Shown here: piece after piece, positions 8,706-22,267 of the stretch
Position numbering within the stretch: position 1 is the stretch's first letter
Layout of the letters: every line of letters starts with the position of its first letter
Assembly: GCF_900232105.1 (NCBI RefSeq)
Contig: NZ_LT934425.1
Span: 2,460,001-2,492,000, forward strand
DNA length: 32,000 nucleotides
Direction: 5' to 3'
Origin: Candidatus Kuenenia stuttgartensis
GTDB taxonomy: Bacteria; Planctomycetota; Brocadiia; Brocadiales; Brocadiaceae
Made by a program: the position numbers and the translations under genes
Notes under the pieces: model-generated
Seen by the model: only the letters and a program-made list of their open reading frames with translations
Database searches by the model: none
Told to the model about the DNA's origin: nothing

Positions 8706-10403
8706 TGCGTTTAGCTAAGTATTCTCATCGCAAGCTCTTGGGACTATTCCAGCAGAGGATGTCGTTTTAACTCTGGACAGTATCAAAGAAGCTTTGGGAA
8801 CGACTTCAAAAGCAACGGTTTTCAGGAAGCTAAAATCGCTCGGACATCGTGCGAGTTATTCCCATGCAGGGCAAATACCATACACTGGATACACTTGCAA
8901 GCTATAATAAATATGGCATTTGGAGTTTCAATCAAATATATTTTTCTCAACAAGGAAGTCTTGTATATACTCTCGAGGCCATCATTAATAAATCTCATGG
9001 AAGGTTGTTTTGCCTCGGAGCTTCAAACGCTGGTACATGTGCGAGTCTTTAATGCACTGACTCAATTAGTGGTATCTGGAAGAGTCTTGCGCGAGCAGAT
9101 TGCCGGAGAATATTTGTATATCTCCAAGGTGTTAGGTACGGATCAACTCGCCAGACGTAAACAGTCAATCATGTTGTGTGCTTGTAAGGAAGAAAATGTA
9201 TTAATTCCCGGCTTTGGGAGTGAGGCGGTTACGGATTGCCTGCAGACATTTCTTTCCTATACTTGATGAAAGGCAGAAACGGCTTTATCTTGGTTTAGAA
9301 TCAATGAAACTGGGATATGGCGGCGATTTAAGACTTTCACTGCTAACCGGCATAAATGTAAAAACAATTGCCAAGGGGCGTCGGGAACTTTCGAGTAAGA
9401 ACATTACACCGGGACGGATACGTAAGGTTGGTGCAGGTCGTTCTTCGATTAAAAAAAAACTGATGTGGTAAAACTTCTTGAAGAATTGATGGAGGGCGAT
9501 ACTGCAGGAGACCCAATGGGTAAAGGAAAAATATGGACGAGAAGAAGCACACGTACTCTAAAAAAAGAATGCGGTGATAGAGGTGTAAGCGTATGTGCAA
9601 CAACAGTTAGTAAGCTTCTTAAGGACATGGATTATTCTCTGAGAGTAAATCGCAAAACGATAGCAGAGACACGTCATCCGGACCGTAATAGACAGTTTGA
9701 AATTATTAATGAGACAAAAAAGTATTTTGAAGATTCTGGTCAGCCAATAATCAGTGTTGACAGTAAGAAAAAGGAATTGATAGGTAATTTCAGAAATGAG
9801 GGCAAGGCGTGGACAAAAATAGTAAATGAAGTTTTGGCCCATGATTTTCGTTCTCAGGCAATTGGTGTTGGATGTCCGTTTGGTATCTATGAATTGCTGA
9901 CTAATTTAGGGACAGTTATTGTTGGTACGTCCTATGACACACCGGAATTTGCAGTCGAGTCAATTAAGATTTGGCTGGATGAATTTGGTTGGAAGAGGTA
10001 TCCATGCGCAAAAGAACTCCTTATTCTTTGTGACGCAGGAGGGAGCAACGGATTTCGTCCCCGGTTGTGGAAATATGCGCTTTATCAAAATATTTGTAAA
10101 GTTTACGGACTCTCCATCAGGATTTGCCACTATCCCTCAGGAGCATCAAAATGGAATCCGGTAGAACATCGTCTGTTTAGTTTTATCAGTAAAAATTGGG
10201 AGGGGAATCCTTTGAGGTCTTATGATGTTATGCTAAGTTTAATTGCTGGCACTACAACAACAGCGGGTCTTCTCGTACAAACCATTCTTAACGAGAAAGA
10301 ATACCAAAAAGGAATCAAAATCACTGATGACCAAATGAAAGAAATAAACATAAACAAACACAGTGTCTTGCCAGATTGGAATTATACAATTTCACTTAAC
10401 TAA
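8706..10403 (+). mobile_element. ISAzo13-type (Rhodopirellula DDE transposase family) insertion sequence remnant with multiply frameshifted ORFs
   Basis: 9465..10403 encodes the DDE domain (ISVDSKKKELIGNF, ILCDAGGSNG, YPSGASKWNPVEHRLFS). The N-terminal part ILDERQKRLYLGLESMKLGYGG lies in another frame (9214..9471). A further upstream winged-helix-like part (TVFRKLKSLGHRASYSHAGKYHTLD) is split over two more frames. Element ends were not identified. Confidence 0.75.
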
Positions 10404-10442
10404 ATTAATAAAAATACCAAATTATTTTTGGACAGTGTCTAA

Positions 10443-10726
10443 ATGGCATACAATATAAAATGGTCTCCACGGGCTGCCTCCGATTTTGAAGAAATTTGTG
10501 AGTACATCGCAAATATTATGCTGCTCTTTTTGCGAGAAAAGTAAATGTCATTGTTAAATCAATTCCTCAATTTCCCAAGTCTGGACGAATGGTTCCTGAG
10601 TATGGAGATGAAGATTTACGAGAAAAGATTTATGAGAATTACAGAATCGTTTATCGTATTAAAGGAGAACTTATTGAGGTTGTTGCCATTTGTCATGGCT
10701 CAAGGCTTTTGGGAAATGTATTGTAA
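10443..10726 (+). pseudogene. ParE/RelE-family toxin, frameshifted
   Basis: MAYNIKWSPRAASDFEEICEYIA then stops. The +1 frame continues KYYAALFARKVNVIVKSIPQFPKSGRMVPEYGDEDLREKIYENYRIVYRIKGELIEVVAICHGSRLL, a classic ParE/RelE core. No antitoxin is left upstream, where the IS ends at 10403. Confidence 0.75.
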
Positions 10727-10953
10727 TCGGAGACGGAACCTCATTTGACAAAAAATTTTTATAGAACATTCTAATATTGAAGCGGATGTTCTTTTACGTG
10801 TTCTTTGTGATGACCCTCCAGTTGATGCGATTGAAGAATCAGGAGGGGTAATCGTGAGTTACGAAGAAGATAGAGAACCTGTCAGTGTGGCTCAAGTTCC
10901 GGGGCACCATACATAATTATTGACTTCATTATTAAAATAGTTAAGAGGTGTTC

Positions 10954-11583
10954 ATGTCCGGAATTGCTCGTGTGGTAGTTCCGGAAACGCCACATCATAT
11001 TACTCAACGAGGAAGTCGACGTATGCAGGCATTCTTCTGCGACTAGGATTGTGAGGCTACATAGACTTGACGTTTCAGTGGTGTAGGCGCTCAGACATTG
11101 AAATATGGGCATATTGCTTGCTGCCAAACCATGTACACCTGATTAGGTTCCGCCCTCTGAAAATGCGCTTAGCCAGGCGATTGGAGAAGCGCATCGACGC
11201 TACACACATCGCGTAAATTTCCGGGAAGGCTGGAGAGGCCACCTGCGGCAAGGACGTTTTGCCTCTTTCCCAATAGACAAAACCCATTTGTGTTTAGCCT
11301 AGTGGCACATTTTGCCTGTGCGGAATACAGGCAGGAATGCCTGTACCACCCTTGCAATAAATTTTATTATTCATCTTCCGAAAACCTTATTTTTTTGACT
11401 ATATTTACAAAAAATCGGGAATGCACCCTTGCTGGGAGAGATGATCGTCTTGTGCATGGAGAGCCGTTGCTTGAGATGTTTGGCAAGTGGGACGAGTTTC
11501 TTTCCAGAGGTCTATCGGAAGGAGAAGTTGAAAAGGACCGATGTCATGAGCGAGCCGGAAGACCTCTTAGCGCCGACAGTTTT
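10954..11583 (+). pseudogene. RAYT / IS200-like Y1 transposase, dead copy A
   Basis: MSGIARVVVPETPHHITQRGSRR..., with a TAG at the FFCD* position, 1-nt deletions, and a central segment replaced by foreign repeats (11300-11427). The 3' end is cut by the MITE at 11584. Left inverted repeat GGGGCACCATAC at 10901-10912. Confidence 0.8.
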
Positions 11584-11724
11584 GGGAGCATTCCCGATTT
11601 TTTGTAAGTGTTCATGGAGTTGGGGCAAAACAACCCTGACAGGGTTTCAAACCCTGTCAGGGTTAACACTACTGTACGTTTTATTAAAACATGGCGGAAG
11701 TCACAAAAAATCGGGAATGCACCC
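11584..11724. mobile_element. 141-bp MITE, copy A
   Basis: Terminal inverted repeats GGGAGCATTCCCGATTTTTTGT ... ACAAAAAATCGGGAATGCACCC. Central 33-nt palindrome at 11632-11664. The left flank is GACAGTTTT. Confidence 0.8.
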
Positions 11725-11835
11725 CTACAAGACCTCTAAACCAATCTCAAAAGAAAGGGCTCAGGACACTTTATCTGATGCTGTTTATTTTGTAAATGCC
11801 ATAATGAAATATCTGGAAGATGATATGAAGAAATC

Positions 11836-12012
11836 ATGAAAGCTGTGCATCCGGATAAGGCATACAATCTTGAAATGCCGATTGAAATGTTCGCGGGCGA
11901 AGGAGATGTGGTTTTTGCTATCAGCAGTTCCGGCAGATCCGAGAACATCCTCTGCAGGGTTAGGGTAGGCATATCTAAAAAGTGCAGAGTAATTACACTG
12001 TCTGAAGTTTGA
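11836..12012 (+). pseudogene. SIS-domain (GmhA-like sedoheptulose-7-P isomerase) gene fragment
   Basis: A 58-codon frame: ...FAGEGDVVFAISSSGRSENILCRVRVGISKKCRVITLSEV*. It resembles the GDVL-x-ISTSGNS-x-N...G..VI-LTG core of SIS/GmhA proteins. It lacks both the N- and C-terminal parts. Confidence 0.35.
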
Positions 12013-12173
12013 GCAACAAAGGCCTCTTCCTTTTGAATACAAAAGCGTCAAGCTTGATTGTGAACATAGAATTGATATTTATAGTTGAAGAAAAAAGGTT
12101 ATCCTCAACAAAGGCTCTTCCTGGGCCAAAATTTTAATAGCAAGCCTCTTATAATCAGTCTGGATTATGGAGT

Positions 12174-12635
12174 ATGATAAAAGTTTATTTTGATAACTGC
12201 GTGTATAACAGACCCTTTGATGATCAGGGCAATGAGAGGGTTTTGATTGAGGCAAGGGCTTTTTATATTATTCTTAAGTGGATTGAAGATGGGAAAATAA
12301 CGAGTATCAACTCCGATGCCCTTGAATATGAAAACGGTATGACGCCTGATCCTGACAGACGAATCAGGATTAAGACATACCTTGCCATGACAAAGGCGCA
12401 TGCAAAGTTTTCTGAATCTCTGGCTGAGAGGGCGAAAGAGATTGTTGGTTTAGGTATGAGGGGGATGGATGCCGTGCACATAGCTATGGCAGAGCATGAG
12501 AATGCCGAATACTTTGTTACCTGTGATGATGGTATAATAAAAAGAGCCAAAGAATTCTCAGAAATGCTTAGAGTGAAGGTTTGTAGTATATTGAAATTTC
12601 TGGAGGAGGTAATGCAATATGGCGAAGACAATTAG
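12174..12635 (+). CDS. PIN-domain protein (VapC-like toxin candidate)
   Basis: 153 aa with acidic residues spaced like a PIN fold: FDNCV (D7), EARA, MDAVHIAMA, VTCDDGI. Confidence 0.55.
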   Translation: MIKVYFDNCVYNRPFDDQGNERVLIEARAFYIILKWIEDGKITSINSDALEYENGMTPDPDRRIRIKTYLAMTKAHAKFSESLAERAKEIVGLGMRGMDAVHIAMAEHENAEYFVTCDDGIIKRAKEFSEMLRVKVCSILKFLEEVMQYGEDN

Positions 12636-12810
12636 TGAGGTTAAAGAGATAGGATGGGACGCCCTCGTTGAACGCTTAGGAGCAAGCGGCGCAACGCTAT
12701 TCATTTTGGAATACGAAAAAGGTTATGGAGATTACACCAAAGACAGAACAAAGATATTCGACAAAAAACCCCTTGAAGAAATTATAGAAGAAATCAAAGG
12801 AGAGGATTAA
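12619..12810 (+). CDS. small acidic protein downstream of the PIN gene (possible cognate partner)
   Basis: 63-aa ORF overlapping the PIN gene by 17 nt. No recognisable motif. The call rests on position only. Confidence 0.3.
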   Translation: MAKTISEVKEIGWDALVERLGASGATLFILEYEKGYGDYTKDRTKIFDKKPLEEIIEEIKGED

Positions 12811-12862
12811 CATAAAATGAAAGATTCACCTTGCAGCGAAAATAATGAAAGGAGGAGTGAGG

Positions 12863-13018
12863 AATGAACTTACATGAAAGGATATGTTTGGGAAGTCTGT
12901 AATTAAAGGTACTCGTATTACTGTGGAACATATACTCCGTAAATTAGGCGGTGGTATAACTCCTGATGAAATTATCGAAGACCATCCTCATCTAAAAAAA
13001 GGTAACTATTCAGCGTAG
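12863..13018 (+). pseudogene. DUF433-family protein, frameshifted and 3'-truncated
   Basis: MNLHERI then a frameshift, then DMFGKSVIKGTRITVEHILRKLGGGITPDEIIEDHPHLKK (DUF433 core GKPVIKGTRI.V..IL). The end is replaced by the small element starting at 13002. Confidence 0.55.
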
Positions 13019-13107
13019 ACGATACACGGCTCGTTCCCAAACCTTGTACTGAACATAGTGAAGTATCTGTTTGGGAATGCATTTGTTCGAGAAACTCCGG
13101 TTTCTCG
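13002..13107. repeat. small insertion-type repeat (GTAACTRTTCAGCGTA ... AAACTCCGGTTTCTCG), long form
   Basis: Shares both ends with 20096-20157. It has an internal inverted repeat GTTCCCAAAC/GTTTGGGAAT and truncates the DUF433 gene. Confidence 0.6.
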
Positions 13108-13269
13108 CCTGTTTGCTGATAGATAGGGAATAAAATCACAGGGTTAAGACAGTTTGTAATTTGTCAAGTCAGACCCGCACTGGAAACAAAGTTTCCAGTG
13201 CAATTGATAGTTCTGGGGACATCATACATAAATTATTGACTTCATTATTAAAATAGTTAAGAGGTGTTC

Positions 13270-14103
13270 ATGTCCAGAATTGCGCATATGGTAGTTCCGG
13301 AAACGTCACATCATATTACTCAACGAGGAAAACGACGTTTGCAGACATTCTTATGCGACGAGGATTATGAGGTATACATAAACTTGACGTTTCAGTGGTG
13401 TAGGCGCTGGGACATTGAAATATGTGCATATTGCTTGCTGCCAAACCATGTACACCTGATTGCGGTTCCGCCCTCTGAAAATGCGCTTAGTCAGGCGATT
13501 GGAGAAGCGCATCGACGCTACACACGCCGCGTAAACTTCCGGGAAGGCTGGAGAGGACGCCTGTGGTAAGGACGTTTTGCCTCTTTCCCAATGGACAAAA
13601 CCCATTTGTACTTAGCCGCACGCTATGCTGAACTGAATCTGGTGAGAGCAACATTAGTTAAGAAACTGCAGGGGCACCGATGGGGTAGCGCATCCGCGCA
13701 CATTGCTGGGAGAGATGACCGTCTTGTGCCTGTAGAGCCGTTGTTTGAGATGTTTGGCAAGTGGGACGAGTTTCTTTCCAGAGGTCTATCGGAAGGAGAA
13801 GTTGAAAAGGCCCGATGTCATGAGCGAGCCGGAAGACCTCTTAGCGCCGACAGTTTTGGGTGTATTCCCGATTTTTTGTGATTTCCGCCATGTTTTATGA
13901 AACGTTGCAGTAGTGTTAACCCTGACAGGGTTTCAAACCCTGTCAGGGTTGTTTTGCCCCGACTCCATGAACGCTTACAAACAATCGGGAATGCACCCGA
14001 CAGTTTTTTAGTCCAGCTTGAAAATGCTCCTGGAAGAATACTCCATAAGCAAGAATCTGGCCCAAAGAGGTCTCAAAAGGAAAAGAAGCATCTCCAAAAT
14101 TGA
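13270..14103 (+). pseudogene. RAYT / IS200-like Y1 transposase, copy B (least damaged)
   Basis: HUH motif PNHVHLIAV. C-terminal helix AARYAELNLVRATLVKK..HRWGSASAH. In-frame TAA at 13567-13569 where copies A and C have CAA (LW*GRFAS). MITE inserted at 13858-13998. After the MITE the tail resumes (DSFLVQLENAPGRILHKQESGPKRSQKEKK*). Flanking inverted repeats at 13215-13227 and 14104-14115. Confidence 0.85.
13858..13998. mobile_element. 141-bp MITE, copy B, with 9-bp target-site duplication
   Basis: TIRs GGGTGTATTCCCGATTTTTTGT / ACAAACAATCGGGAATGCACCC. Palindrome at 13918-13950. Direct repeats GACAGTTTT at 13849-13857 and 13999-14007. The interior is reverse-complemented relative to copy A. Confidence 0.85.
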
Positions 14104-14197
14104 GTATGGCGTCCCTGAATTCGTCAAAGGTTGATAAGTATGATTGCCTTAGTGTTAATTGACTTGATGGTAATAAAAATTTATTGGAGAAAAAACG

Positions 14198-14401
14198 ATG
14201 AAAACAAAAACCCTTCCATTTGCAAAAGAATTTATAACAGATTCTAAAGGGCACATTACCAAAATAATTATGGATTTTGATGATTATCAACGTTTTCTTG
14301 ATTGGGTTGAAGATGAAGGATTAGTTCTGGCAATGAATGAGGTTGAAAATGAAGCGTCTATGAGCCTGGAAAAGGCATTAAATGAACTTGAAAAGAAATG
14401 A
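14198..14401 (+). CDS. putative antitoxin of the RelE/ParE pair
   Basis: 67-aa acidic ORF (IMDFDDYQRFLDWVEDEGLVLAMNEVENE) overlapping the downstream toxin by ATGA. Confidence 0.5.
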   Translation: MKTKTLPFAKEFITDSKGHITKIIMDFDDYQRFLDWVEDEGLVLAMNEVENEASMSLEKALNELEKK

Positions 14402-14688
14402 AGACGGAGTATATATCAAGTTTTATAAAGGATTTGGGAGCGCTAAAAGGTTCCCATTATTATGAGAAGATTAAAACTATGGTTTTCGAAGATATTCCCA
14501 AATTACCTGATATAGACAAAGTGAAGAATTTAAGAAAGTTAAAAAATAACAAACCATATTACCGGATTCGTATTGGGGAATATAGAATAGGAGTTAGATT
14601 GAATAATAATACACTGGTTTTATGCGTAACACGTAAATATACAGATTTTCGAAATTTGCTCGCCAATAATTTGAAAATTTTCAGTTAA
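14398..14688 (+). CDS. RelE/ParE-family toxin whose 3' end is replaced by an IS630 fragment
   Basis: KLKNNKPYYRIRIGEYRIGVRLNNNTLVLCVTR is the RelE/ParE beta-sheet core. From 14652 on the sequence is identical to the IS630 end at 15445, so the last residues are foreign. Confidence 0.6.
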   Translation: MKTEYISSFIKDLGALKGSHYYEKIKTMVFEDIPKLPDIDKVKNLRKLKNNKPYYRIRIGEYRIGVRLNNNTLVLCVTRKYTDFRNLLANNLKIFS

Positions 14689-14929
14689 AAGAGTAGACAA
14701 TTCATCTGTATACTCGTTAATATTTTTGAAAAAACTTAAACATTTGTTTTTAAACTTCTCATAAGTATCATAATACTTGTTATACAATATTTTCCATAAT
14801 TTGCGAATAGAATTTCCATAATCTTTCAATGAGATTTAAATTGGGCGAATAGGAAGGGAGAAATTTGATCTTTATTCTCGAATTTGCAAGGTATTCTTTG
14901 ACCAACTGACCTGTAATATTTAGCATTAT
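14652..14929 (-). mobile_element. IS630-family element, 3'-terminal fragment (duplicate of 15445-15725)
   Basis: Near-identical to the 3' end of the full copy. It encodes the transposase C-terminus ...YNKYYDTYEKFKNKCLSFFKNINEYTDELSTLLTENFQIIGEQISKI on the minus strand. Confidence 0.8.
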
Positions 14930-14958
14930 TGCACCGTCTTGTGATTAGATGTTTGTAA

Positions 14959-15145
14959 CGATTTTCTTACCAGCGGTCTATCGGAAGAAGAAGTCGAAGA
15001 GGTTCGATGTCATGGGCGAACCGGAAGACCTCCTGGCGCTGACAGTTTTTTAGTCCAGCTTGAAAATGCTCCTGGAAGAATACTCCATAAGCAAAAACCT
15101 GGCCCAAAGAGGTCTCAAAAGGAAAAGAAGCATCTCCAAAATTAA
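14959..15145 (+). pseudogene. RAYT 3' fragment (copy D)
   Basis: Matches copy C 21110-21290 (...EEVEEVRCHGRTGRPPGADSFLVQLENAPGRILHKQKPGPKRSQKEKKHLQN*). The MITE target site GACAGTTTT is uninterrupted at 15041-15049. Right inverted repeat GTATGGCGTCCC at 15146-15157. Confidence 0.75.
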
Positions 15146-15233
15146 GTATGGCGTCCCATGAATTCTCAATAAGTGGGATGTGTCTCCTTTTTCCAAGATA
15201 AAATTAAATAAGATTAACGGGAGGATTAGCTTC

Positions 15234-15434
15234 ATGAAAGTTATTACAGAAAAAGAAGAACTTTATAAACTTATTAAAGAAGCGGTAAGAGAGGTTTTGC
15301 ACGAAGAAATTGTGGAGATATTTCTTAAAAATATACCTTTGATTTCAAAGGAAGAAATGAAAGATATTGAAAATTTGTACGGGAAGCCATCGTTAGATAA
15401 AATAGCGGCGTTTAGCGAGACAATAGAGATATAG
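15234..15434 (+). CDS. small acidic ORF, possible orphan antitoxin
   Basis: ATG at 15234 follows GGGAGGA. The 66-aa K/E-rich product is MKVITEKEELYKLIKEAVREVLHEE. It ends 10 nt before the IS630 end. Function not recognised. Confidence 0.25.
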   Translation: MKVITEKEELYKLIKEAVREVLHEEIVEIFLKNIPLISKEEMKDIENLYGKPSLDKIAAFSETIEI

Positions 15435-15444
15435 TCAAACAAAT

Positions 15445-16480
15445 CAGATTTTCGAAATTTGCTCGCCAATAATTTGAAAATTTTCAGTTAAAAGAGTAGA
15501 CAATTCATCTGTATACTCGTTAATATTTTTGAAAAAACTTAAACATTTGTTTTTAAACTTCTCATAAGTATCATAATACTTGTTATACAATATTTTTTTG
15601 CGAAAGAATTTCCATAATCTTTCAATGAGATTTAAATTGGGCGAATAGGAAGGGAGAAATTTGATCTTTATTCTCGAATTTGCAAGGTATTCTTTGACCA
15701 ATTTAGACCTGTAATATTTAGCATTATCAGAGATTATGTAAATAGTACCGGCTTGAGCATACCTTGACTCTATTTCATGGAAAAGCTTTATTGTTGATTG
15801 AGCATTGATGCTTTCATCTTCCCGGATTGTTACTTCAAAGGTTTCTATGTCAATAGCCCGTTTAAATTTATTCTTTTCCTGCCGGTATTAGAGGGTATTT
15901 CCTTCTTTTTGCCTTTCTCTATCCAGCAATATGCAGACGTAGAATTGTGCTGTGGATGAACTCCATCCATAAAAAGTATCTTATCTCCGGGGGCTTTCTC
16001 TTCTTTGAGTTGTTTGTAGTTTTCGATAAATTCTTTTTGTTTTTCAGGGTTTGCTTTGCCTGGAACTATTGTAGTTTTCTTGTAAGTAAAGCCTAATCTA
16101 TCGAGGGTATGTACCATTCCTTCGGGTGTATAGATTTTATTGAATGTCTGTTTTACATATTCAACAATTTCTTTTGCCGCACTATAGTTGTTTTTCCTGA
16201 TATGATCTTTTAATTGTTCTTCTTGTTCGCAGGTGAGTTTTGGCACACAGCCAATATAATTGTCAGATAAAAGCCCGTCAAAACCTTTATCTTTGTATAG
16301 TTTTTCGTAATTCCTGATTGTTTGATCGTCTAACAAGAGCGCCTCTGCTACTTCTTCATAACTCCATCCTGAATCAAGAAGAAGTATAGCTTTGATTCGG
16401 TCGGCATGACGTCTATGAGGCTCTTTCTTATGTGCTTTTTTAAATTCTATTCGGGTTTTTTCACTGAGAAATGGATTCAT
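15445..16480 (-). mobile_element. IS630-family insertion sequence with frameshifted transposase
   Basis: 16480..15845 encodes the HTH N-terminal part (RIKAILLLDSGWSYEEVAEALLLDDQTIRNYEKLYKDKG) and the first D (ILFMDGVHP). The frame breaks at about 15850 (NLNGLLT* versus expected NLNGAIDIET). The remainder (IYIISDNAKYYRSKLVKEY...SYSPNLNLIERLWKFFRKK) lies in another frame to 15444. The upstream end and TIRs were not identified. Confidence 0.8.
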
Positions 16481-16984
16481 GCAGAATTTAATACTCTAGA
16501 AACAATTCAAATGCAAGAAAAAAACAGGTTCTTCTAAAAATAAATGCTTTTTACTATCGCTACTCAATTTGTCCCAGACCTCAGACTTCAACTATTTAAC
16601 AAGTTTTCCCATTTCTGGATTGACAATCCCCGAAGAAGTGTTTATTATGCCAAACGTTTGAAATTCTAAACGTTTAACAATTCAAACAATTCTTTACTGC
16701 CACGCGCATAGGTAAACGGACTGTAAGGGTGACGTCTAACATGGAGCGACAATCTCGTTTCACTGGCAGGCGGGCAAGTTATTCATAAGTACCGCAATAT
16801 AATAAGTTACACATATGATATCCATGTAACTGAGAGGGACGGAGTCCAGGCACTGTTTCCTTTTTACTAAAACGAATGATATTGACATAGCTTACGACGA
16901 CAAGGAGTGTAAGGGACATCACCTCATAGCGGAAGAGATTCGGAAGCTTCCGATCCTCGTATTGACGTGAAGAATATTGCCTTT

Positions 16985-17134
16985 GATGTAGAGAGTAAGA
17001 TGTCATCCTGATTTTTAATAAATCTTGCATGCTTGTCCGCTTGTCAGCCTGTTTTGACCTTTGACCGCTCGCTGCCAACTGTTTATTATCTAATCAACCA
17101 TTTAACGTCTTAACGAATCAACCGTTCTAATGCA
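16985..17134 (+). repeat. R element copy 2
   Basis: Same about 150-nt sequence as 7200-7349 and 17988-18146. Confidence 0.8.
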
Positions 17135-17169
17135 GACCTCTGACCTCTGGCTTCTGACTTCCGATCTTT
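17135..17169 (+). repeat. heptamer array, 5 degenerate units
   Basis: gacctct gacctct ggcttct gacttcc gatcttt. Confidence 0.7.
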
Positions 17170-17247
17170 GCCCACTTACCTCGAATTTGAACTATTTACC
17201 CTTTGCCAGTTTTCCGCCTTACTTTTTATAAATGGGGAATGTGCTAT

Positions 17248-17511
17248 ATGCCTGTTAAATATGATATAGAAATACCAGAAAGAGTGATAAAAGCGCTTGG
17301 TTTGCGTGAAAGTGAAGTAAGTGAAACGCTAAAAAAAGAACTTTCAGTTTATTTTTTTGAAAAAAAACTTTTAAGTTTTGGTCAGGCAAGACAATTTTCA
17401 GGGTTATCAGTATGGGACTTTCTGGAATTTTTAAGAGAAAGGAAAATCCCTTTGCATTATGATTTGGCTGAGTATGAGGAAGATTTAGAAACAATCAGGG
17501 AATTATCATAA
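17248..17511 (+). CDS. UPF0175-family antitoxin
   Basis: MPVKYDIEIPERVIKALGLRESEVSETLKKELSVYFFEKKLLSFGQARQFSGLSVWDFLEFLRERKIP has the typical UPF0175 layout. Its stop overlaps the toxin ATG (TAATG). I prefer the ATG at 17248 to the track start at 17203. Confidence 0.7.
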   Translation: MPVKYDIEIPERVIKALGLRESEVSETLKKELSVYFFEKKLLSFGQARQFSGLSVWDFLEFLRERKIPLHYDLAEYEEDLETIRELS

Positions 17512-18014
17512 TGCCTGTTGTTATTTCCAATGCTTCTCCATTAATAGGACTTGTGGGAATTGAACAACTGCATATCTTAAGAAAATTATGGTCGGAAATA
17601 GTTATTCCTGAGGCTGTGTATAAGGAAGTTGTTGTAGAAGGAAGAGGAAAACAGGGAGCGAATGTAATAGAGGAGGCATGTAAAGAATGGATAAGAGTTG
17701 TTTCTGTGAAAAACAGGCCAGAAGTTGAAGTATTGCAGACCATTCTTGATGAAGGCGAAGCCGAAGTTATAACGCTGGGACAGGAGATTAAAAAAAGCAT
17801 TCTTTTACTTGACAACAGAGAGCCACGTAATTTTGCAAGGACTGTTAATCTGAAAATGATTGGCACAGTTGGTGTTATTAGATTTGCATGGACGAAAGGC
17901 TTAATAAAAGAACCAATCCATGAGATAAATAAGTTACGGTTGAACGGCTTCTGGATAGGCGAGAAACTTATTGAGCAGTTTAAAAAAGATGTAGAGAGTA
18001 AGATGTCATCCTGA
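17511..18014 (+). CDS. DUF3368-family PIN-like toxin
   Basis: 167 aa: VVISNASPLIGLVGIEQLHILRKLWSEIVIPEAVYKEV...DEGEAEVITLG...LLLDNREPR. DUF3368 is the usual partner of UPF0175. The last 9 codons come from R element copy 3. Confidence 0.7.
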   Translation: MPVVISNASPLIGLVGIEQLHILRKLWSEIVIPEAVYKEVVVEGRGKQGANVIEEACKEWIRVVSVKNRPEVEVLQTILDEGEAEVITLGQEIKKSILLLDNREPRNFARTVNLKMIGTVGVIRFAWTKGLIKEPIHEINKLRLNGFWIGEKLIEQFKKDVESKMSS

Positions 18015-18146
18015 TTTTTAATAAATCTTGCATGCTTGTCAGCTTGTCAGCCTGTTTTTGACCTTTGACCGCTCACGGCCAAACTGCCAACTGTTTATTA
18101 TCTAATCAACCATTTAACGTCTTAACGACTCAACCGTTCTAATGCA
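17988..18146 (+). repeat. R element copy 3 (overlaps 3' end of the PIN-like gene)
   Basis: Same sequence as copies 1 and 2, with an extra 8 nt (GGCCAAAC). Confidence 0.8.
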
Positions 18147-18174
18147 GACCTCTGACCTCTGACTTCAGGCCTCT
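18147..18174 (+). repeat. heptamer array, 4 units, immediately upstream of the four-helix-bundle gene
   Basis: gacctct gacctct gacttca ggcctct. Confidence 0.75.
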
Positions 18175-18181
18175 GGATAAT

Positions 18182-18562
18182 ATGAAAATTGAATCAGCTA
18201 AGGATTTGCGGGTGTATCAGAAAGCTTATGCACTTGCTATGGAACTGTTTGAACTTTCGAAAGAATTCCACTGTGAGGAGCGTTTTGCTCTTACAGATCA
18301 AATACGCCGATCATCAAGATCAGTCTGCGCCAACCTGAGAGAAGCTTGGGCAAAAAGGCGTTACCCTGCACATTTTGTAAGCAAACTTACAGACTGTGAC
18401 GGAGAAAACAGTGAAACAGATACATGGTTAGACTTTGCACGAGACTGCAACTACATTACGGACAAACATCATAAGGAGCTGACGTCTATTTGCTTAGAAG
18501 TTGGAAAAATGCTTGGGAGTATGATCAATAATCCAAAGCCGTTTCTGATCTCCGCCCCCTGA
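18182..18562 (+). CDS. four-helix-bundle protein (23S rRNA intervening-sequence protein family, Avd-like)
   Basis: 126 aa: LRVYQKAYALAMELFELSKEF..EERFALTDQIRRSSRSVCANLREAWAKRRYPAHFVSKL..DGENSETDTWLDFA is the family signature as I know it. The last 5 codons and the stop lie inside the downstream heptamer array. Confidence 0.8.
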   Translation: MKIESAKDLRVYQKAYALAMELFELSKEFHCEERFALTDQIRRSSRSVCANLREAWAKRRYPAHFVSKLTDCDGENSETDTWLDFARDCNYITDKHHKELTSICLEVGKMLGSMINNPKPFLISAP

Positions 18563-18630
18563 TCTCTGACCTCTGACCTCTGACCTCTGGTCTCTGGTCT
18601 CTGATCTCTGACTTCTGACCTATGACCTCA
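18547..18630 (+). repeat. heptamer array, 12 units (consensus GACCTCT)
   Basis: gatctcc gccccct gatctct gacctct gacctct gacctct ggtctct ggtctct gatctct gacttct gacctat gacctca, counted by hand. Confidence 0.9.
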
Positions 18631-18681
18631 GATTAAAACCAATTAACGAATCAAAAGATAAATGTTACAGAAAGAGCATCA

Positions 18682-19686
18682 ATGGAAATAATCAATCCAC
18701 ACGACAAATTTTTCAAAGAGACCTTTTCCATAAAGAAAAATGTAATCGATTTTCTCCAGGGAACATTTCCCCCTGAAATTTTGAAAAAGCTGGATTTATC
18801 CACTTTAACACAGGATAATAATTCATATATCGACGAAGAACTAAAAGAACATTTCTCAGACATTGTATATACCTGTTTCTGTAAAGACAAAGAACTCCGG
18901 ATAACCCTTTTATTCGAGCACAAGAGTTATGCCGTAGCATGTCCGTATCTACAGTTGATGAAATACCTTTTAAAGATATGGGAAGCAAACAGCAAGCAGT
19001 CACAAAGGCTCATGCCGGTAATTCCGGTGATATTGTATCATGGCAAAGATGCGTGGAAAGTCAGGAGATTCAGAGACTATTTTGAAGGGATAGACGAGGT
19101 ATTCTTTAGATTTATACCGGAATTTGAATATCTGCTGACGGATCTGAGTTGTTATAGTAATGAGGAAATAAAGGACAGGGCATTTAGAAGGGTATCCCTT
19201 CAAATAACCATGTTATTAATGAGGAATATATATAATGACAAAATTCTGGGAGACAAGCTAAAGGCATTCTTTGAAATAGGGAAGCAGTATTTTGAAGAGG
19301 GTGAAGGATTAAAGTTTCTGGAAAGTGTGATCAGGTATTTGTACTATGCGTCGGATATAGAGGAAGAAAGGGTAATAGATACCCTAAAAGAGATATCGGA
19401 AGAAGGAGGTAGATTAAGCATGACAATAGCAGCCAGATTAATAGAAAAAGGCAAAATGGCCGGTAGGGCGGAAGGTAAAGTAGAAGGTAAAGTAGAAGGT
19501 AGAGTAGAAGGCCGGATAGAAGGCCTAAAAGAAGCGATAGAGATTGGTTTGGAGCTAAAGTATGGCGTTGAAGGTTTAAGGCTTCTGGAACGTATCAGTA
19601 AAATAGTAGTAATAGAGAAACTGGAGGCAATAAAAGAGGCGGTGAAAATATCAAAGAATATGGAAGAAATTGAAAAATTGCTCTAA
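18682..19686 (+). CDS. Rpn-family recombination-promoting nuclease / putative transposase (PD-(D/E)xK, YhgA-like)
   Basis: 334 aa. N-terminal PHDKFFKETF, then FSDIVY...LLFEHKS (the D...E-x-K nuclease core). The C-terminal helical region has EGKVEGKVEGRVEGRIEG repeats typical of this family. Confidence 0.8.
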   Translation: MEIINPHDKFFKETFSIKKNVIDFLQGTFPPEILKKLDLSTLTQDNNSYIDEELKEHFSDIVYTCFCKDKELRITLLFEHKSYAVACPYLQLMKYLLKIWEANSKQSQRLMPVIPVILYHGKDAWKVRRFRDYFEGIDEVFFRFIPEFEYLLTDLSCYSNEEIKDRAFRRVSLQITMLLMRNIYNDKILGDKLKAFFEIGKQYFEEGEGLKFLESVIRYLYYASDIEEERVIDTLKEISEEGGRLSMTIAARLIEKGKMAGRAEGKVEGKVEGRVEGRIEGLKEAIEIGLELKYGVEGLRLLERISKIVVIEKLEAIKEAVKISKNMEEIEKLL

Positions 19687-19937
19687 CATGAAAAACTCAT
19701 ATCGTAACAATTTAGCTTGCCGCAGAGAACGCTGGGACTTCGTCGTGAGCTCAATCGAACAATCGCAGAGGTTTTTAGGAGATAAAAACAGAAAATTATG
19801 CAGGTGCCCACGGGTATTTGTTTTCTCCGTGTTATCCGCGCCCTTTACGGTGAACTATTACCTCATATCTTATCCATGAAATATGGAAAAGAACTAAATT
19901 CACTGGTCAACTCATTAGAAAAAAAGACTCGACCGCA

Positions 19938-20007
19938 GACCTCCGACTTCTGCCCTCCGACCCCTGACTTCCGACTTCTGACTTCTAGTCTCTGCCCTCT
20001 GACTTCC
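19938..20007 (+). repeat. heptamer array, 10 degenerate units
   Basis: gacctcc gacttct gccctcc gacccct gacttcc gacttct gacttct agtctct gccctct gacttcc. Confidence 0.85.
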
Positions 20008-20095
20008 GGGTGTATCAGAAAGCTTATGCACTTGCTATGGAACTGTTTGAACTTTCGAAAGAATTCCCCTGTGAGGAGCGTTTTGCTCTTACAGA
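20007..20095 (+). pseudogene. four-helix-bundle gene fragment (codons about 10-39 only)
   Basis: CGGGTGTATCAGAAAGCTTATGCACTTGCTATGGAACTGTTTGAACTTTCGAAAGAATTCC.CTGTGAGGAGCGTTTTGCTCTTACAGA equals 18209-18297. Its 5' side abuts the heptamer array and its 3' side is cut by the small element at 20096. Confidence 0.85.
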
Positions 20096-20157
20096 GTAAC
20101 TGTTCAGCGTAAATATTATCGTTTAATACCGACTTGCTCCCAAACTCCGGTTTCTCG
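20096..20157. repeat. small insertion-type repeat, short form (partner 13002-13107)
   Basis: Starts GTAACTGTTCAGCGTA and ends AAACTCCGGTTTCTCG. It truncates the four-helix-bundle fragment. Confidence 0.6.
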
Positions 20158-20309
20158 TACATCGTTTCGTTAAAATGTGTACGTAAAAAATGTCATTGCG
20201 AGGAGTGGAGCGACGAAGCAATCTCTTGTTCCCAAAAGACTTAAGATTGCTTCGCTGTCGCTCGCAATGACGGTATCAATGTAGATATTCTAATGAAACG
20301 CTATACTAG
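20157..20309. repeat. 153-nt hairpin repeat, copy 2
   Basis: Partner of 4513-4665. The stem at 20193-20270 (TCATTGCGAG...CGACGAAGCAATCT / AGATTGCTTCG...CTCGCAATGA) pairs perfectly at both ends. Confidence 0.85.
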
Positions 20310-20453
20310 ATTTAAAAATCCAGTAGATATTAAAACTTTTGTTGCTAATGGTAAAAGGAAGGCCGAAAGCTGAACTGAAAAAGATTCCTTTTAGTTCTGG
20401 GGACACCATACATAAATTATTGACTTCATTATTAAAATAGTTAAGAGGTGTTC

Positions 20454-21290
20454 ATGTCCAGAATTGCGCATATGGTAGTTCCGGAAACGCCACATCATAT
20501 TACTCAACGAGGAAGTCGACATTTGCAGGCATTCTTCTGCGACTAGGATTGTGAGGCTACATATACTTGATGTCTCAGTGGTGTAGGCGCTGGGACATTG
20601 AAATATGTGCATATTGCTTGCTACCAAACCATGTACACCTGATTGGGGTCCGTCCTCTGGAAATGCGCTTAGTCAGGCGATTGGATAAGTGCATCGACGC
20701 TACACAAGTCGCGTAAACTTCCGGGAAGGCTGGAGAGGGCGCCTGTCACAAGGACGTTTTGCCTCTTCCTTAATAGACAAAACCCATTTGTACTTAGCCG
20801 CACGCTATGTTGAACTGAATCCGGTGAGAGCAAAATTAGTTAAGAAACTACAGGAGTACCGATGGAGTAGTGCACCGGCACACATTGCTGGGAGGTGCAT
20901 TCCCGATTTTTTGTAATTATCTGCACAATGTAACACAAGCATACTGCTTGTGATATTTAATACACAAGCTGCCTGCCTATACGGGTTGGCACAGGCATTT
21001 TGCCTGTGCGAAATACAGGCAGGAATGACTGTACCACCCTTGCTGGGAGAGATGACCGTCTTGTGCATGTAGAGCCGTTGCTTGAGATGTTTGGCAAGTG
21101 GGACGATTTTCTTACCAGCGGTCTATCGGAAGAAGAAGTCGAAGAGGTTAGATGTCATGAACGAACCGGAAGACTTCCTGGCGCTAACAGTTTTTTAGTC
21201 CAGCTTGAAAATGCCCATGGAAGAATACTCCATAAGCAAAAACCTGGCCCAAAGAGGTCTCAAAAGGAAAAGAAGCCTCTCCTGAATTAA
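20454..21290 (+). pseudogene. RAYT / IS200-like Y1 transposase, dead copy C
   Basis: Shares the TAG (FFCD*) and the adjacent 1-nt deletion with copy A. A 146-bp insertion sits at 20894-21039. The tail ...GANSFLVQLENAHGRILHKQKPGPKRSQKEKKPLLN* is intact and has no MITE. Inverted repeats at 20399-20411 and 21291-21302. Confidence 0.85.
20894..21039. mobile_element. 146-bp insertion with 9-bp target duplication TTGCTGGGA
   Basis: Direct repeats at 20885-20893 and 21040-21048; copy B has the uninterrupted site. The left end is GGTGCATTCCCGATTTTTTGT (MITE-type TIR). The right end is different, a hairpin-containing ...GCCTGTGCGAAATACAGGCAGGAATGACTGTACCACCC. Confidence 0.75.
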
Positions 21291-21330
21291 GTATGATGTC
21301 CCTGTAATTCCCAATGCTATTGCTGAACTT

Positions 21331-21552
21331 TTGAATAAAGAGCCTGAATTAAGGGAGAAATTGATAGTAGGCGCCTATATTGACGGAGAGATAAATCCTG
21401 GAAAAGCGGCAGAACTATTGGGGATTCACCCGGTTAAGCTGAGAGGGCAACTTTTATCAAAAGGCATACCTGTCAGGATAGGTGTAGAAACGATAGAAGA
21501 AATAGTAGCCGAAGGGATAGCTGCAAGAGGTACCAGGGAAAGTGCTGAATGA
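21331..21552 (+). CDS. UPF0175-like antitoxin, probably N-terminally clipped
   Basis: LIVGAYIDGEINPGKAAELLGIHPVKLRGQLLSKGIPV fits the UPF0175 HTH region. The frame is open upstream to the RAYT right end (IPNAIAELL...) with no ATG, and the track start is TTG. Confidence 0.45.
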   Translation: MNKEPELREKLIVGAYIDGEINPGKAAELLGIHPVKLRGQLLSKGIPVRIGVETIEEIVAEGIAARGTRESAE

Positions 21553-21557
21553 TACTT

Positions 21558-21748
21558 ATGGACAACAATGTCCTGTCAAACTTTGCCCTGATAGGAGAGA
21601 TAAACCTTCTACAAGACTACAGTTTGCTGAGAATGTGGATATTCAGACAGAGGAATTTTGTGAAGATATGGCTGCCAAAAAAATAGAATATGTCATAATG
21701 ATTGTAATCAACGATAGATACAGACATCGGCATATTCATGAGACATGA
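21558..21748 (+). pseudogene. PIN-like toxin 5' remnant
   Basis: MDNNVLSNFALIGEINLLQDYS resembles the first strand and helix of PIN toxins. The frame then breaks and the rest of the domain is absent. Confidence 0.3.
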
Positions 21749-21953
21749 GGGAGGAAAGATAGTATTTTTCAGGGTACCATATAAGACAAGAATTAATGAT
21801 AAATGGTGTCCTGTTGTCAGATATGATACTGCTCGTGGATTTGTACATGGGGATTTGATGAGTGTCAATGGAGATGTAAAGAAAACACCTTTATTTAATC
21901 AAGACAATAACAGTGCATTAACTTTTGCTGAAAATGATCTAAAATCTAATTGA
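21738..21953 (+). CDS. small protein of unrecognised family, possibly prematurely terminated
   Basis: 71-aa ORF (VVRYDTARGFVHGD). After TGA 21951-21953 the same frame stays open for 11 more codons to TGA 21987-21989, which overlaps the ATG of the next gene. Confidence 0.35.
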   Translation: MRHEGGKIVFFRVPYKTRINDKWCPVVRYDTARGFVHGDLMSVNGDVKKTPLFNQDNNSALTFAENDLKSN

Positions 21954-21988
21954 GAGTATTACAAAAAGAGATTTTTGGAGGAGGGGTG

Positions 21989-22267
21989 ATGTGCAAGGAA
22001 AAAGAAATGATAGAGCGCAATATTGAGCTAAGCGCTGAGTTTAGCAGGTATTTGTTTGAACATCCGGAAGTTGAAACAAAGATACCACTGGATGCAAAGG
22101 TTGTGCTTTTGCCTGAATTTGACAAAGAATTAAAGAGATTTAATCTTCAATTGGGAAAAAACATCGAAGCGGATGGTGGGCGGGTGGTATATATACTGAT
22201 CAAAAATATTCGCCCTAAGGTTTTGTCAAGAATAGAAAAAATAGAATTTGAACCTGTTGCGAATTAA
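21989..22267 (+). CDS. small protein, DUF5647-like (from memory)
   Basis: ATG at 21989 follows GGAGGAGGGG. The product MCKEKEMIERNIELSAEFSRYLFEHPEVETKIPLDAKVVLLPEFDKELKRFNLQLGK resembles that family. The track start at 21950 is less likely. Confidence 0.4.
   Translation: MCKEKEMIERNIELSAEFSRYLFEHPEVETKIPLDAKVVLLPEFDKELKRFNLQLGKNIEADGGRVVYILIKNIRPKVLSRIEKIEFEPVAN

Follow-up and report, generated by a model that had tools for sequence, protein, structure and literature searches.

Gene copies between terminal inverted repeats in Candidatus Kuenenia stuttgartensis are very probably decayed TIRtrons

Gene copies at the locus

The stretch of DNA analysed here (the window) comprises 32,000 nucleotides, positions 2460001–2492000 of the 4.406-Mb single-contig genome of Candidatus Kuenenia stuttgartensis; positions below are those of the window unless marked as genome positions. 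On its plus strand, three long copies (A, B and C) and one fragment (D) of the same gene can be found within a stretch of toxin-antitoxin modules (PIN, RelB-like and UPF0175/DUF3368 genes) and other mobile DNA, and a fifth copy (E) is located at genome 3487936–3488706. The gene belongs to the clade of the REP-associated tyrosine transposases (RAYTs; REP, repetitive extragenic palindrome) and is bracketed by inverted repeats. RAYT-like genes between terminal inverted repeats have been described by Di Nocera, De Gregorio and Rocco in 2013 (PMC3733652), who introduced the names TIRYT for the enzyme and TIRtron for the unit. The local family of A, B, C and D consists very probably of decayed TIRtrons, with the unit structure, the mode of action and the history that are proposed below.

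None of the copies in the window is intact, as the original prediction had stated, and their alignment displays stops, frameshifts, insertions of miniature inverted-repeat transposable elements (MITEs) and truncations (Table 1). In detail, copy A has lost the gene tail together with the right repeat. Copy B carries the single CAA-to-TAA nonsense codon and the MITE that had been reported for it, and in addition substitutions of the Y motif (NP to NL and YRWSS to HRWGS). Copy C contains an additional in-frame TAA beyond its TAG, the upstream cut of fragment D adjoins IS630-type fragments, and copy E is broken by several frameshifts and a stop.

Table 1. Features of the TIRtron copies and of other mobile DNA in the window
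Feature	Position	Strand	Remarks
Copy A, 3'-truncated unit	10895–11724	+	Alignment with the other copies and intact relatives
Copy A, left repeat	10895–10919	+	One A missing
Copy A, gene remnant	from 10954	+	Starts at the ATG
Copy A, TAG (codon 33)	11044–11046	+	Shared with copy C
Copy A, 1-nt deletions	11057/58 and 11145/46	+
Copy A, MITE-derived filler	11300–11428		In place of the region of the catalytic Tyr
Copy A, MITE of 141 bp	11584–11724
Copy B, complete unit	13209–14122	+	Multi-copy alignment
Copy B, left repeat	13209–13234	+
Copy B, gene	13270–14103	+	Starts at the ATG
Copy B, CAA to TAA (codon 100)	13567–13569	+	Nonsense codon
Copy B, MITE of 141 bp	13858–13998		22-bp terminal repeats (GGGTGCATTCCCGATTTTTTGT type)
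Copy B, right repeat	14098–14122
Fragment D, 208 bp	14958–15165	+	Last ~60 codons and right repeat
Fragment D, right repeat	15140–15165
Copy C, complete unit	20393–21310	+	Multi-copy alignment
Copy C, left repeat	from 20393	+
Copy C, gene	from 20454	+	Starts at the ATG
Copy C, TAG	20544–20546	+
Copy C, 1-nt deletions	20557/58 and 20645/46	+
Copy C, chimeric MITE of 146 bp	20894–21039		9-bp target duplication TTGCTGGGA at 20885–20893 and 21040–21048
Copy C, right repeat	21285–21310
ISAzo13-type transposase	9465–10403
IS630-type element, full	~15426–16557
YhgA-like transposase	18682–19686

The encoded enzyme

Residues 1–99 of copy B match the Pfam family Y1_Tnp above its cut-off (7e-9) and the NCBIfam model REP_Tyr_transpos below its cut-off (2e-9). 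With the TAA of codon 100 read as glutamine, copy B is open for 197 codons (13270–13860), this TAA being the sole stop there. A search with this read-through retrieved over 7,000 proteins with lengths of about 220–227 aa, the best match being an intact 225-aa metagenome protein with 81% identity. The motifs PNHVHLI and RYVELNPVRA can be found in the copies as well as in intact relatives (Pfam Y1_Tnp, 54.6 bits). A profile of 27 relatives yielded TnpA-REP of E. coli (4ER8) as the best solved structure (8e-7), with ISDra2 behind, and the same protein was the top Foldseek match (9.6e-9, target TM 0.70) of an AlphaFold (AF2) model of the intact relative that reached a pLDDT of 89.9. Our analysis therefore confirmed the assignment of this enzyme to the HUH/Y1 proteins within the RAYT clade.

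The long conserved C-terminal tail that had been noticed is real, as six of its residues (H184, G188, R189, P190, G192 and F196) are invariant in the alignment of the relatives. It is modelled as two confident helices that are followed by a disordered basic end, and no DnaA_C or helix-turn-helix (HTH) domain is detectable with Pfam in the 225-aa form. The NCBIfam equivalog model for REP-associated tyrosine transposases, NF047646 (cut-off 80), gave 69.3 bits for the intact relative and 51.7 bits for the read-through of copy B, neither of which passes.

As Y1_Tnp is the IS200-like family of Pfam and as weak sequence and fold matches to the transposases of ISDra2 and IS608 were obtained, an insertion sequence of the IS200/IS605 type which uses subterminal hairpins has to be considered. 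The Y motif is however of the Y...NP and not of the Y...Q form, the model NF033573 gave only 21.9 bits against a cut-off of 55, the 225-aa protein possesses the conserved C-terminal tail, and neither subterminal hairpins nor a tnpB gene are present. We regard this as the least likely of the explanations discussed here.

Terminal inverted repeats

The units are indeed bracketed by inverted repeats that recur in the genome, for which a length of 12–13 bp had been given; in the alignment they extend to about 26 bp (AATTCNGGGGACACCATACTTAATT). The consensus (G/A)ATTCNGGGGACACCATACTTAATT was obtained from the copies A, B, C, D and E and two intact relatives, and the repeat reaches (A/G)ATTC on its outer side and TTAATT on its inner side. 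For B, C, E and L002, a metagenome contig with an intact relative, the repeats of both ends could be aligned. The right repeat begins at or adjoining the stop codon, and a gap of about 35 nt separates the inner end of the left repeat from the ATG. The repeat contains GGGGACAC, which matches the published GGGGWSAS motif.

Among the left 13-mers, the one at 10901 lacks one A and the one at 20399 is exact, both as described earlier, whereas the one at 13215 (GGGGACATCATAC) had been taken as exact and shows one mismatch; the reverse complements at the right ends are located at 14104, 15146 and 21291. The dispersed copies of this motif that the original prediction had suggested looking for do exist. 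In the genome of 4.4 Mb, the 13-mer has 11 exact occurrences, compared with a chance expectation of about 0.13 (2 x 4.4e6 / 4^13), and 29 occurrences if one mismatch is allowed, and a profile search detected about 40 copies of the repeat at E<0.01.

For L002 and copy B, each strand of either end was folded, and none of them gave a better fold than shuffled sequences (z -1.75 to +0.5). A GTAG tag is absent from the repeats as well. The suggestion that the flanks are REP-like was thus not borne out, and they represent terminal inverted repeats of the TIRtron kind instead.

Dispersed copies in the genome

Most of the dispersed copies, when searched with a profile of the full element and inspected, turned out to be left- or right-end stubs of 30–95 nt which contain element-internal sequence, e.g. 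remnants of the C-terminal codons. In addition, there is an internally deleted mini-element of 180 bp (genome 4353572–4353750), a head-to-head doublet of the repeat of 62 bp (genome 455594–455662; L032 1495–1563), and a left end that is joined to a 40%-identical Y1 paralogue, itself a pseudogene (genome 1322498–1323015). Outside the local family of the window, the genome contains about 30 copies of the repeat, which are mostly end stubs of older insertions.

The nature of these copies bears on a canonical REPtron, i.e. a domesticated single-copy RAYT which spreads its REP/REPIN hairpin flanks through the genome, as the original prediction had framed the units. The RAYT family is the closest one among the solved structures and the NCBIfam models, although the intact relative stays below the cut-off of NF047646. 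The repeat is dispersed about 40 times, once as a doublet that would fold like a REPIN, yet this abundance is well under that of REP families, in which flanking 16-mers occur 57–140 times (Bertels et al. 2017), and most of the dispersed copies are end stubs to which element-internal sequence is attached, and not free repeats. As, moreover, the gene is multi-copy in several Brocadiaceae and the ends are neither palindromic nor tagged, a canonical REPtron is unlikely.

Some further observations concern the dispersed copies. The 26-bp repeat also terminates more diverged TIRYT subfamilies, including the above 40%-identical pseudogene and four right-end stubs (genome 448562, 1746212, 4126457 and 4130897) which have in common more than 60 nt coding for a ...KRSQNKNENLPN tail. 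The 62-bp doublet is located upstream of a conserved gene, where a relative of the same genus (G002) has the doublet and an extra right end; two others (G001 and G003) are without the doublet, but their left flanks differ, so that they do not provide a clean empty site.

Relatives and phyletic spread

L002 carries an intact gene for a 225-aa protein, with a near-perfect repeat on either side, and a genome from another genus of the same family (G008) contains one intact and about ten broken copies. The gene is multi-copy in several Brocadiaceae and the same repeat is present in several genera of this family, the closest named protein relatives being those of Brocadia and other Planctomycetota. 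For a wider survey, 80 loci were taken from contigs of one genome per species, 72 of which had enough flank to be evaluated. Flanking inverted repeats that scored above all 200 shuffles (maximum 12.5) were found in 44 of the 72, nearly all of them with a GGGGACA-type core and with the inner end usually 34–41 nt before the ATG. The loci originate from Nitrospirota, Planctomycetota, Desulfobacterota, Alpha- and Gammaproteobacteria, Elusimicrobia, Armatimonadota and others.

It could be argued that the repeats are the ends of a DDE transposon, e.g. an IS630/Tc1-like one with an AT-rich palindromic target, and that the Y1 gene is a mere passenger, the transposase of that element having moved the copies. 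The outer end of the repeat, AATT, is palindromic and could hide a short duplication, and IS630 and ISAzo13 elements are abundant and adjoin the copies. However, the repeat accompanies the Y1 gene at a fixed spacing in the 44 loci of unrelated phyla, the ends of the IS630 elements in the window bear no relation to the 26-bp repeat, and no DDE gene lies within any unit. We therefore consider a DDE passenger very unlikely.

A side observation concerns the intact genes. The left repeat has been lost at those of G008 (locus L011) and of a contig of Brocadia sp. UTAMX2 (L001), whereas L002 retains both repeats. The locus in G008 has apparently lost the core between AATTC and TTATTGAC and has a truncated right repeat. 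It might be that immobilised copies survive longest (n=2).

Decay and history of the local copies

Copies A and C share the TAG and the neighbouring 1-nt deletion, as had been recognised, but this list was incomplete, as they also have in common the second 1-nt deletion and the MITE at TTGCTGGGA. When L002 is taken as the reference, 35 derived sites are common to A, B and C in the 5' segment and 53 in all three segments compared, including a change from AATTC to AGTTC in the outer repeat. The homology among the copies ends at the repeat ends, and the flanks differ directly outside. Judged from this comparison, A, B and C descend from one founder as precise units and did not arise as parts of a larger segmental duplication; the latter had been put forward as a possible route of copying and appears unlikely.

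The copies are recombinant mosaics. In the middle segment A and B are 96.8% and A and C 88.4% identical, and in the 5' segment B and C are 92.9% identical. Derived states are shared by B and C at the 5' end and by A and C around the TAG and the first deletion, and the 96.8% identity of A and B pertains to the segment before the second MITE site, where the insertion site is also common to both. Among the copies, 27 sites are informative, and these form 9 runs (permutation runs test, P = 5e-5).

After the ancestor of A, B and C, 57 non-synonymous and 15 synonymous substitutions have accumulated, compared with 36 and 44, respectively, on the branch from L002 to this ancestor. Evolution since the ancestor thus looks close to neutral, and by these counts the copies are unconstrained from about the time of their multiplication. 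That an already dead gene was copied again, as had been suggested, is plausible, because the flanks differ directly outside the repeats and because evolution since the ancestor has been near-neutral. It is not proven, however, because of the mosaic structure of the copies: ectopic gene conversion among copies 2–10 kb apart could have spread the lesions.

A tblastn search of the genome with an intact relative revealed no intact close copy. Other Y1 paralogues were found, one of which is intact (228 aa, 40% identity, genome 3604247–3604933, minus strand). It has the same architecture including the C-terminal tail, and, among the closer Y1 hits, is the sole intact relative of the subclass found by tblastn. 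No inverted repeats above chance flank it (best score 9.5 compared with the shuffle maximum of 12.5). As an intact helper for the local copies it was considered and set aside, although a trans-acting role is conceivable.

MITE insertions

The MITE of copy B is flanked by the 9-bp target duplication GACAGTTTT (13849–13857 and 13999–14007), and this 141-bp MITE is also found at the same site in copy A, in the opposite orientation. Of the right end of the MITE in copy C, 48 nt persist at the same site in copy A (11304–11351). Across the genome, the terminal repeats of the MITE family have about 100 matches on each strand, and the target duplications of the family are varied and without a consensus. 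As the family has no site preference, the insertion common to A and B is held by descent or conversion, and common descent or conversion followed by an in-place inversion between the 22-bp repeats is the likeliest history. Independent hits at this site were also considered; they are unlikely given the lack of a target consensus and the 96.8% identity of the surrounding segment.

As a separate observation, MITEs of this terminal-repeat superfamily have inserted into Y1 pseudogene DNA on at least four occasions, i.e. at two sites of the A/B/C family, as an additional MITE end in A and in a different Y1 paralogue (genome 2811705–2812068); in a rough Poisson estimate, about 0.07–0.5 hits are expected in that amount of DNA.

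Neighbourhood

The full IS630-type element of the window recurs genome-wide in about 15 near-identical copies. Two IS630 fragments (14620–14926 and 15444–15701) duplicate its C-terminal region beside fragment D, suggesting a rearrangement at this spot. Immediately to the left of copy B (~13020–13206), 150 nt belong to another short repeat, which is truncated here. About 20 copies of this repeat, with palindromic CTCGTTCCCAAAC-type ends and 96–98% identity, exist in the genome. The truncated copy stops 2 nt (AT) short of the TIRtron boundary. An Rfam scan of 10000–22000 gave no family match.

No empty site was found at copy E or at the 62-bp doublet, where the flanks of the species-level relatives G001–G003 are rearranged. 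Paralogous flanks did not reveal one either, as the repeat that is cut at the left of B does not resume on its right.

Proposed mechanism and its assessment

The original unit would have measured about 775 bp and consisted of the 26-bp repeat, a leader of about 35 nt, one HUH/Y1 gene for a protein of about 225 aa and the repeat again in inverted orientation. In analogy to TnpA-REP and to IS608 and ISDra2, the enzyme would recognise the conserved repeat with its GGGGACAC and nick single-stranded DNA by its catalytic tyrosine (RY*VELNP) with the help of the HUH metal site (NHVH), whereupon the segment bounded by the repeats would be moved without a target duplication. We infer this nick-and-rejoin mode by analogy; the unit-precise copies, the dispersed end stubs and the mini-element are indirect signs of mobility. 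The core of the repeat is extremely conserved along with the gene. The founder would then have been amplified locally, and its copies would have evolved neutrally, received insertions of MITEs from an unrelated family of the DDE type, which generates 9-bp duplications, and swapped patches by gene conversion. Two of them would have become truncated, with nothing functional left here.

Several points weigh against the decayed TIRtrons proposed here. Our literature search retrieved no experimental work on TIRYTs and no demonstration of transposition. The enzymes concerned belong to TnpA-Y1 subclass 2.1 of Quentin et al. 2018 (PMC6006769), in which this subclass is portrayed as not insertion sequence-like and of low copy number. 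The ends of L002 and copy B do not fold into hairpins beyond chance, as described above. With respect to replication, 9 elements are co-oriented and 8 opposed (the cluster in the window was counted once, and cumulative GC skew places the origin at ~1.88 Mb and the terminus at ~3.98 Mb), and an IS608-type lagging-strand mechanism might have left a bias. Finally, as no empty site was found, the exact termini and the apparent lack of a target duplication are read solely from a comparison of flanks.

A more far-reaching possibility, which we regard as doubtful, is that TIRtrons are true autonomous transposons and that the Kuenenia cluster records the trans-mobilisation of an already stopped, twice-frameshifted and MITE-bearing copy by a then-present intact TIRYT, the near-invariant core reflecting sequence-specific HUH recognition. 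If so, recognition that is sequence-specific and not hairpin-based would be a mode not yet described for Y1 transposases.

For annotation, five pseudogenes and about 30 short repeats can be combined into one decayed mobile-element family, with no REP system and nothing active. The wider interest is modest. TIRYTs are very common, as more than 7,000 relatives in one search illustrate. In anammox bacteria, the behaviour of this family is that of an insertion sequence: it multiplies in local bursts and leaves behind end stubs and a mini-element. The core of the 26-bp repeat is kept across phyla far more tightly than REPs are, and the intact relatives are good material for studying how HUH enzymes handle non-hairpin ends.

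Comparison with known systems

The element is already known in kind: TIRtrons and TIRYTs correspond to TnpA-Y1 subclass 2.1, a class which in turn corresponds to RAYT group 1 (Bertels et al. 2017), and the Kuenenia family is ordinary decaying selfish DNA. According to Quentin et al. 2018, the enzymes of this subclass have the motifs NHVH, W[EQ] and YIELNP, a median length of 238 aa and a C-terminal extension with a conserved Ser motif. When compared to the motifs in their Table 1, the proteins of 225 aa described here contain NHVH, LWQGRF, YVELNP and RWSS.

IS200/IS605 elements such as IS608 and ISDra2 have the HUH/Y1 fold in common with the Kuenenia element and, as far as can be inferred, also single-strand cutting and rejoining without target duplication. 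They differ by their Y...Q motif instead of Y...NP, and the Kuenenia element, which is without subterminal hairpins or tnpB, encodes a longer protein with a conserved tail and shows no replication-orientation bias.

TnpA-REP of the E. coli REPtron (4ER8) shares the HUH/Y1 chemistry, and its gene is likewise bracketed by inverted copies of the presumed substrate. There, however, the substrate is a GTAG-tagged hairpin with hundreds of copies (Ton-Hoang 2012; Messing 2012, PMC3479197), in contrast to the linear inverted repeats with about 40 copies in Kuenenia. In addition, the TnpA-REP gene is single-copy and vertically inherited, whereas the Kuenenia gene is multi-copy and decaying.

The closest agreement is found with the TIRtrons themselves. 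These also consist of a Y1 gene of about 225–240 aa with NHVH, WQ, Y(V/I)ELNP and a WSS-containing C-terminal extension, and of non-hairpin terminal inverted repeats, many of them with GGGGWSAS (here GGGGACAC), at fixed distances from the gene. Their repeats sometimes form moderately abundant families (PMC3733652), which is comparable to the about 40 copies found here as singles and one dimer. The Kuenenia copies differ in that all of them are pseudogenes, and the short 225-aa form differs in that Pfam detects no DnaA_C or HTH domain in it. With their local cluster of 81–93% identical copies, many end stubs and one mini-element, they are also more insertion sequence-like than subclass 2.1 as it has been described.

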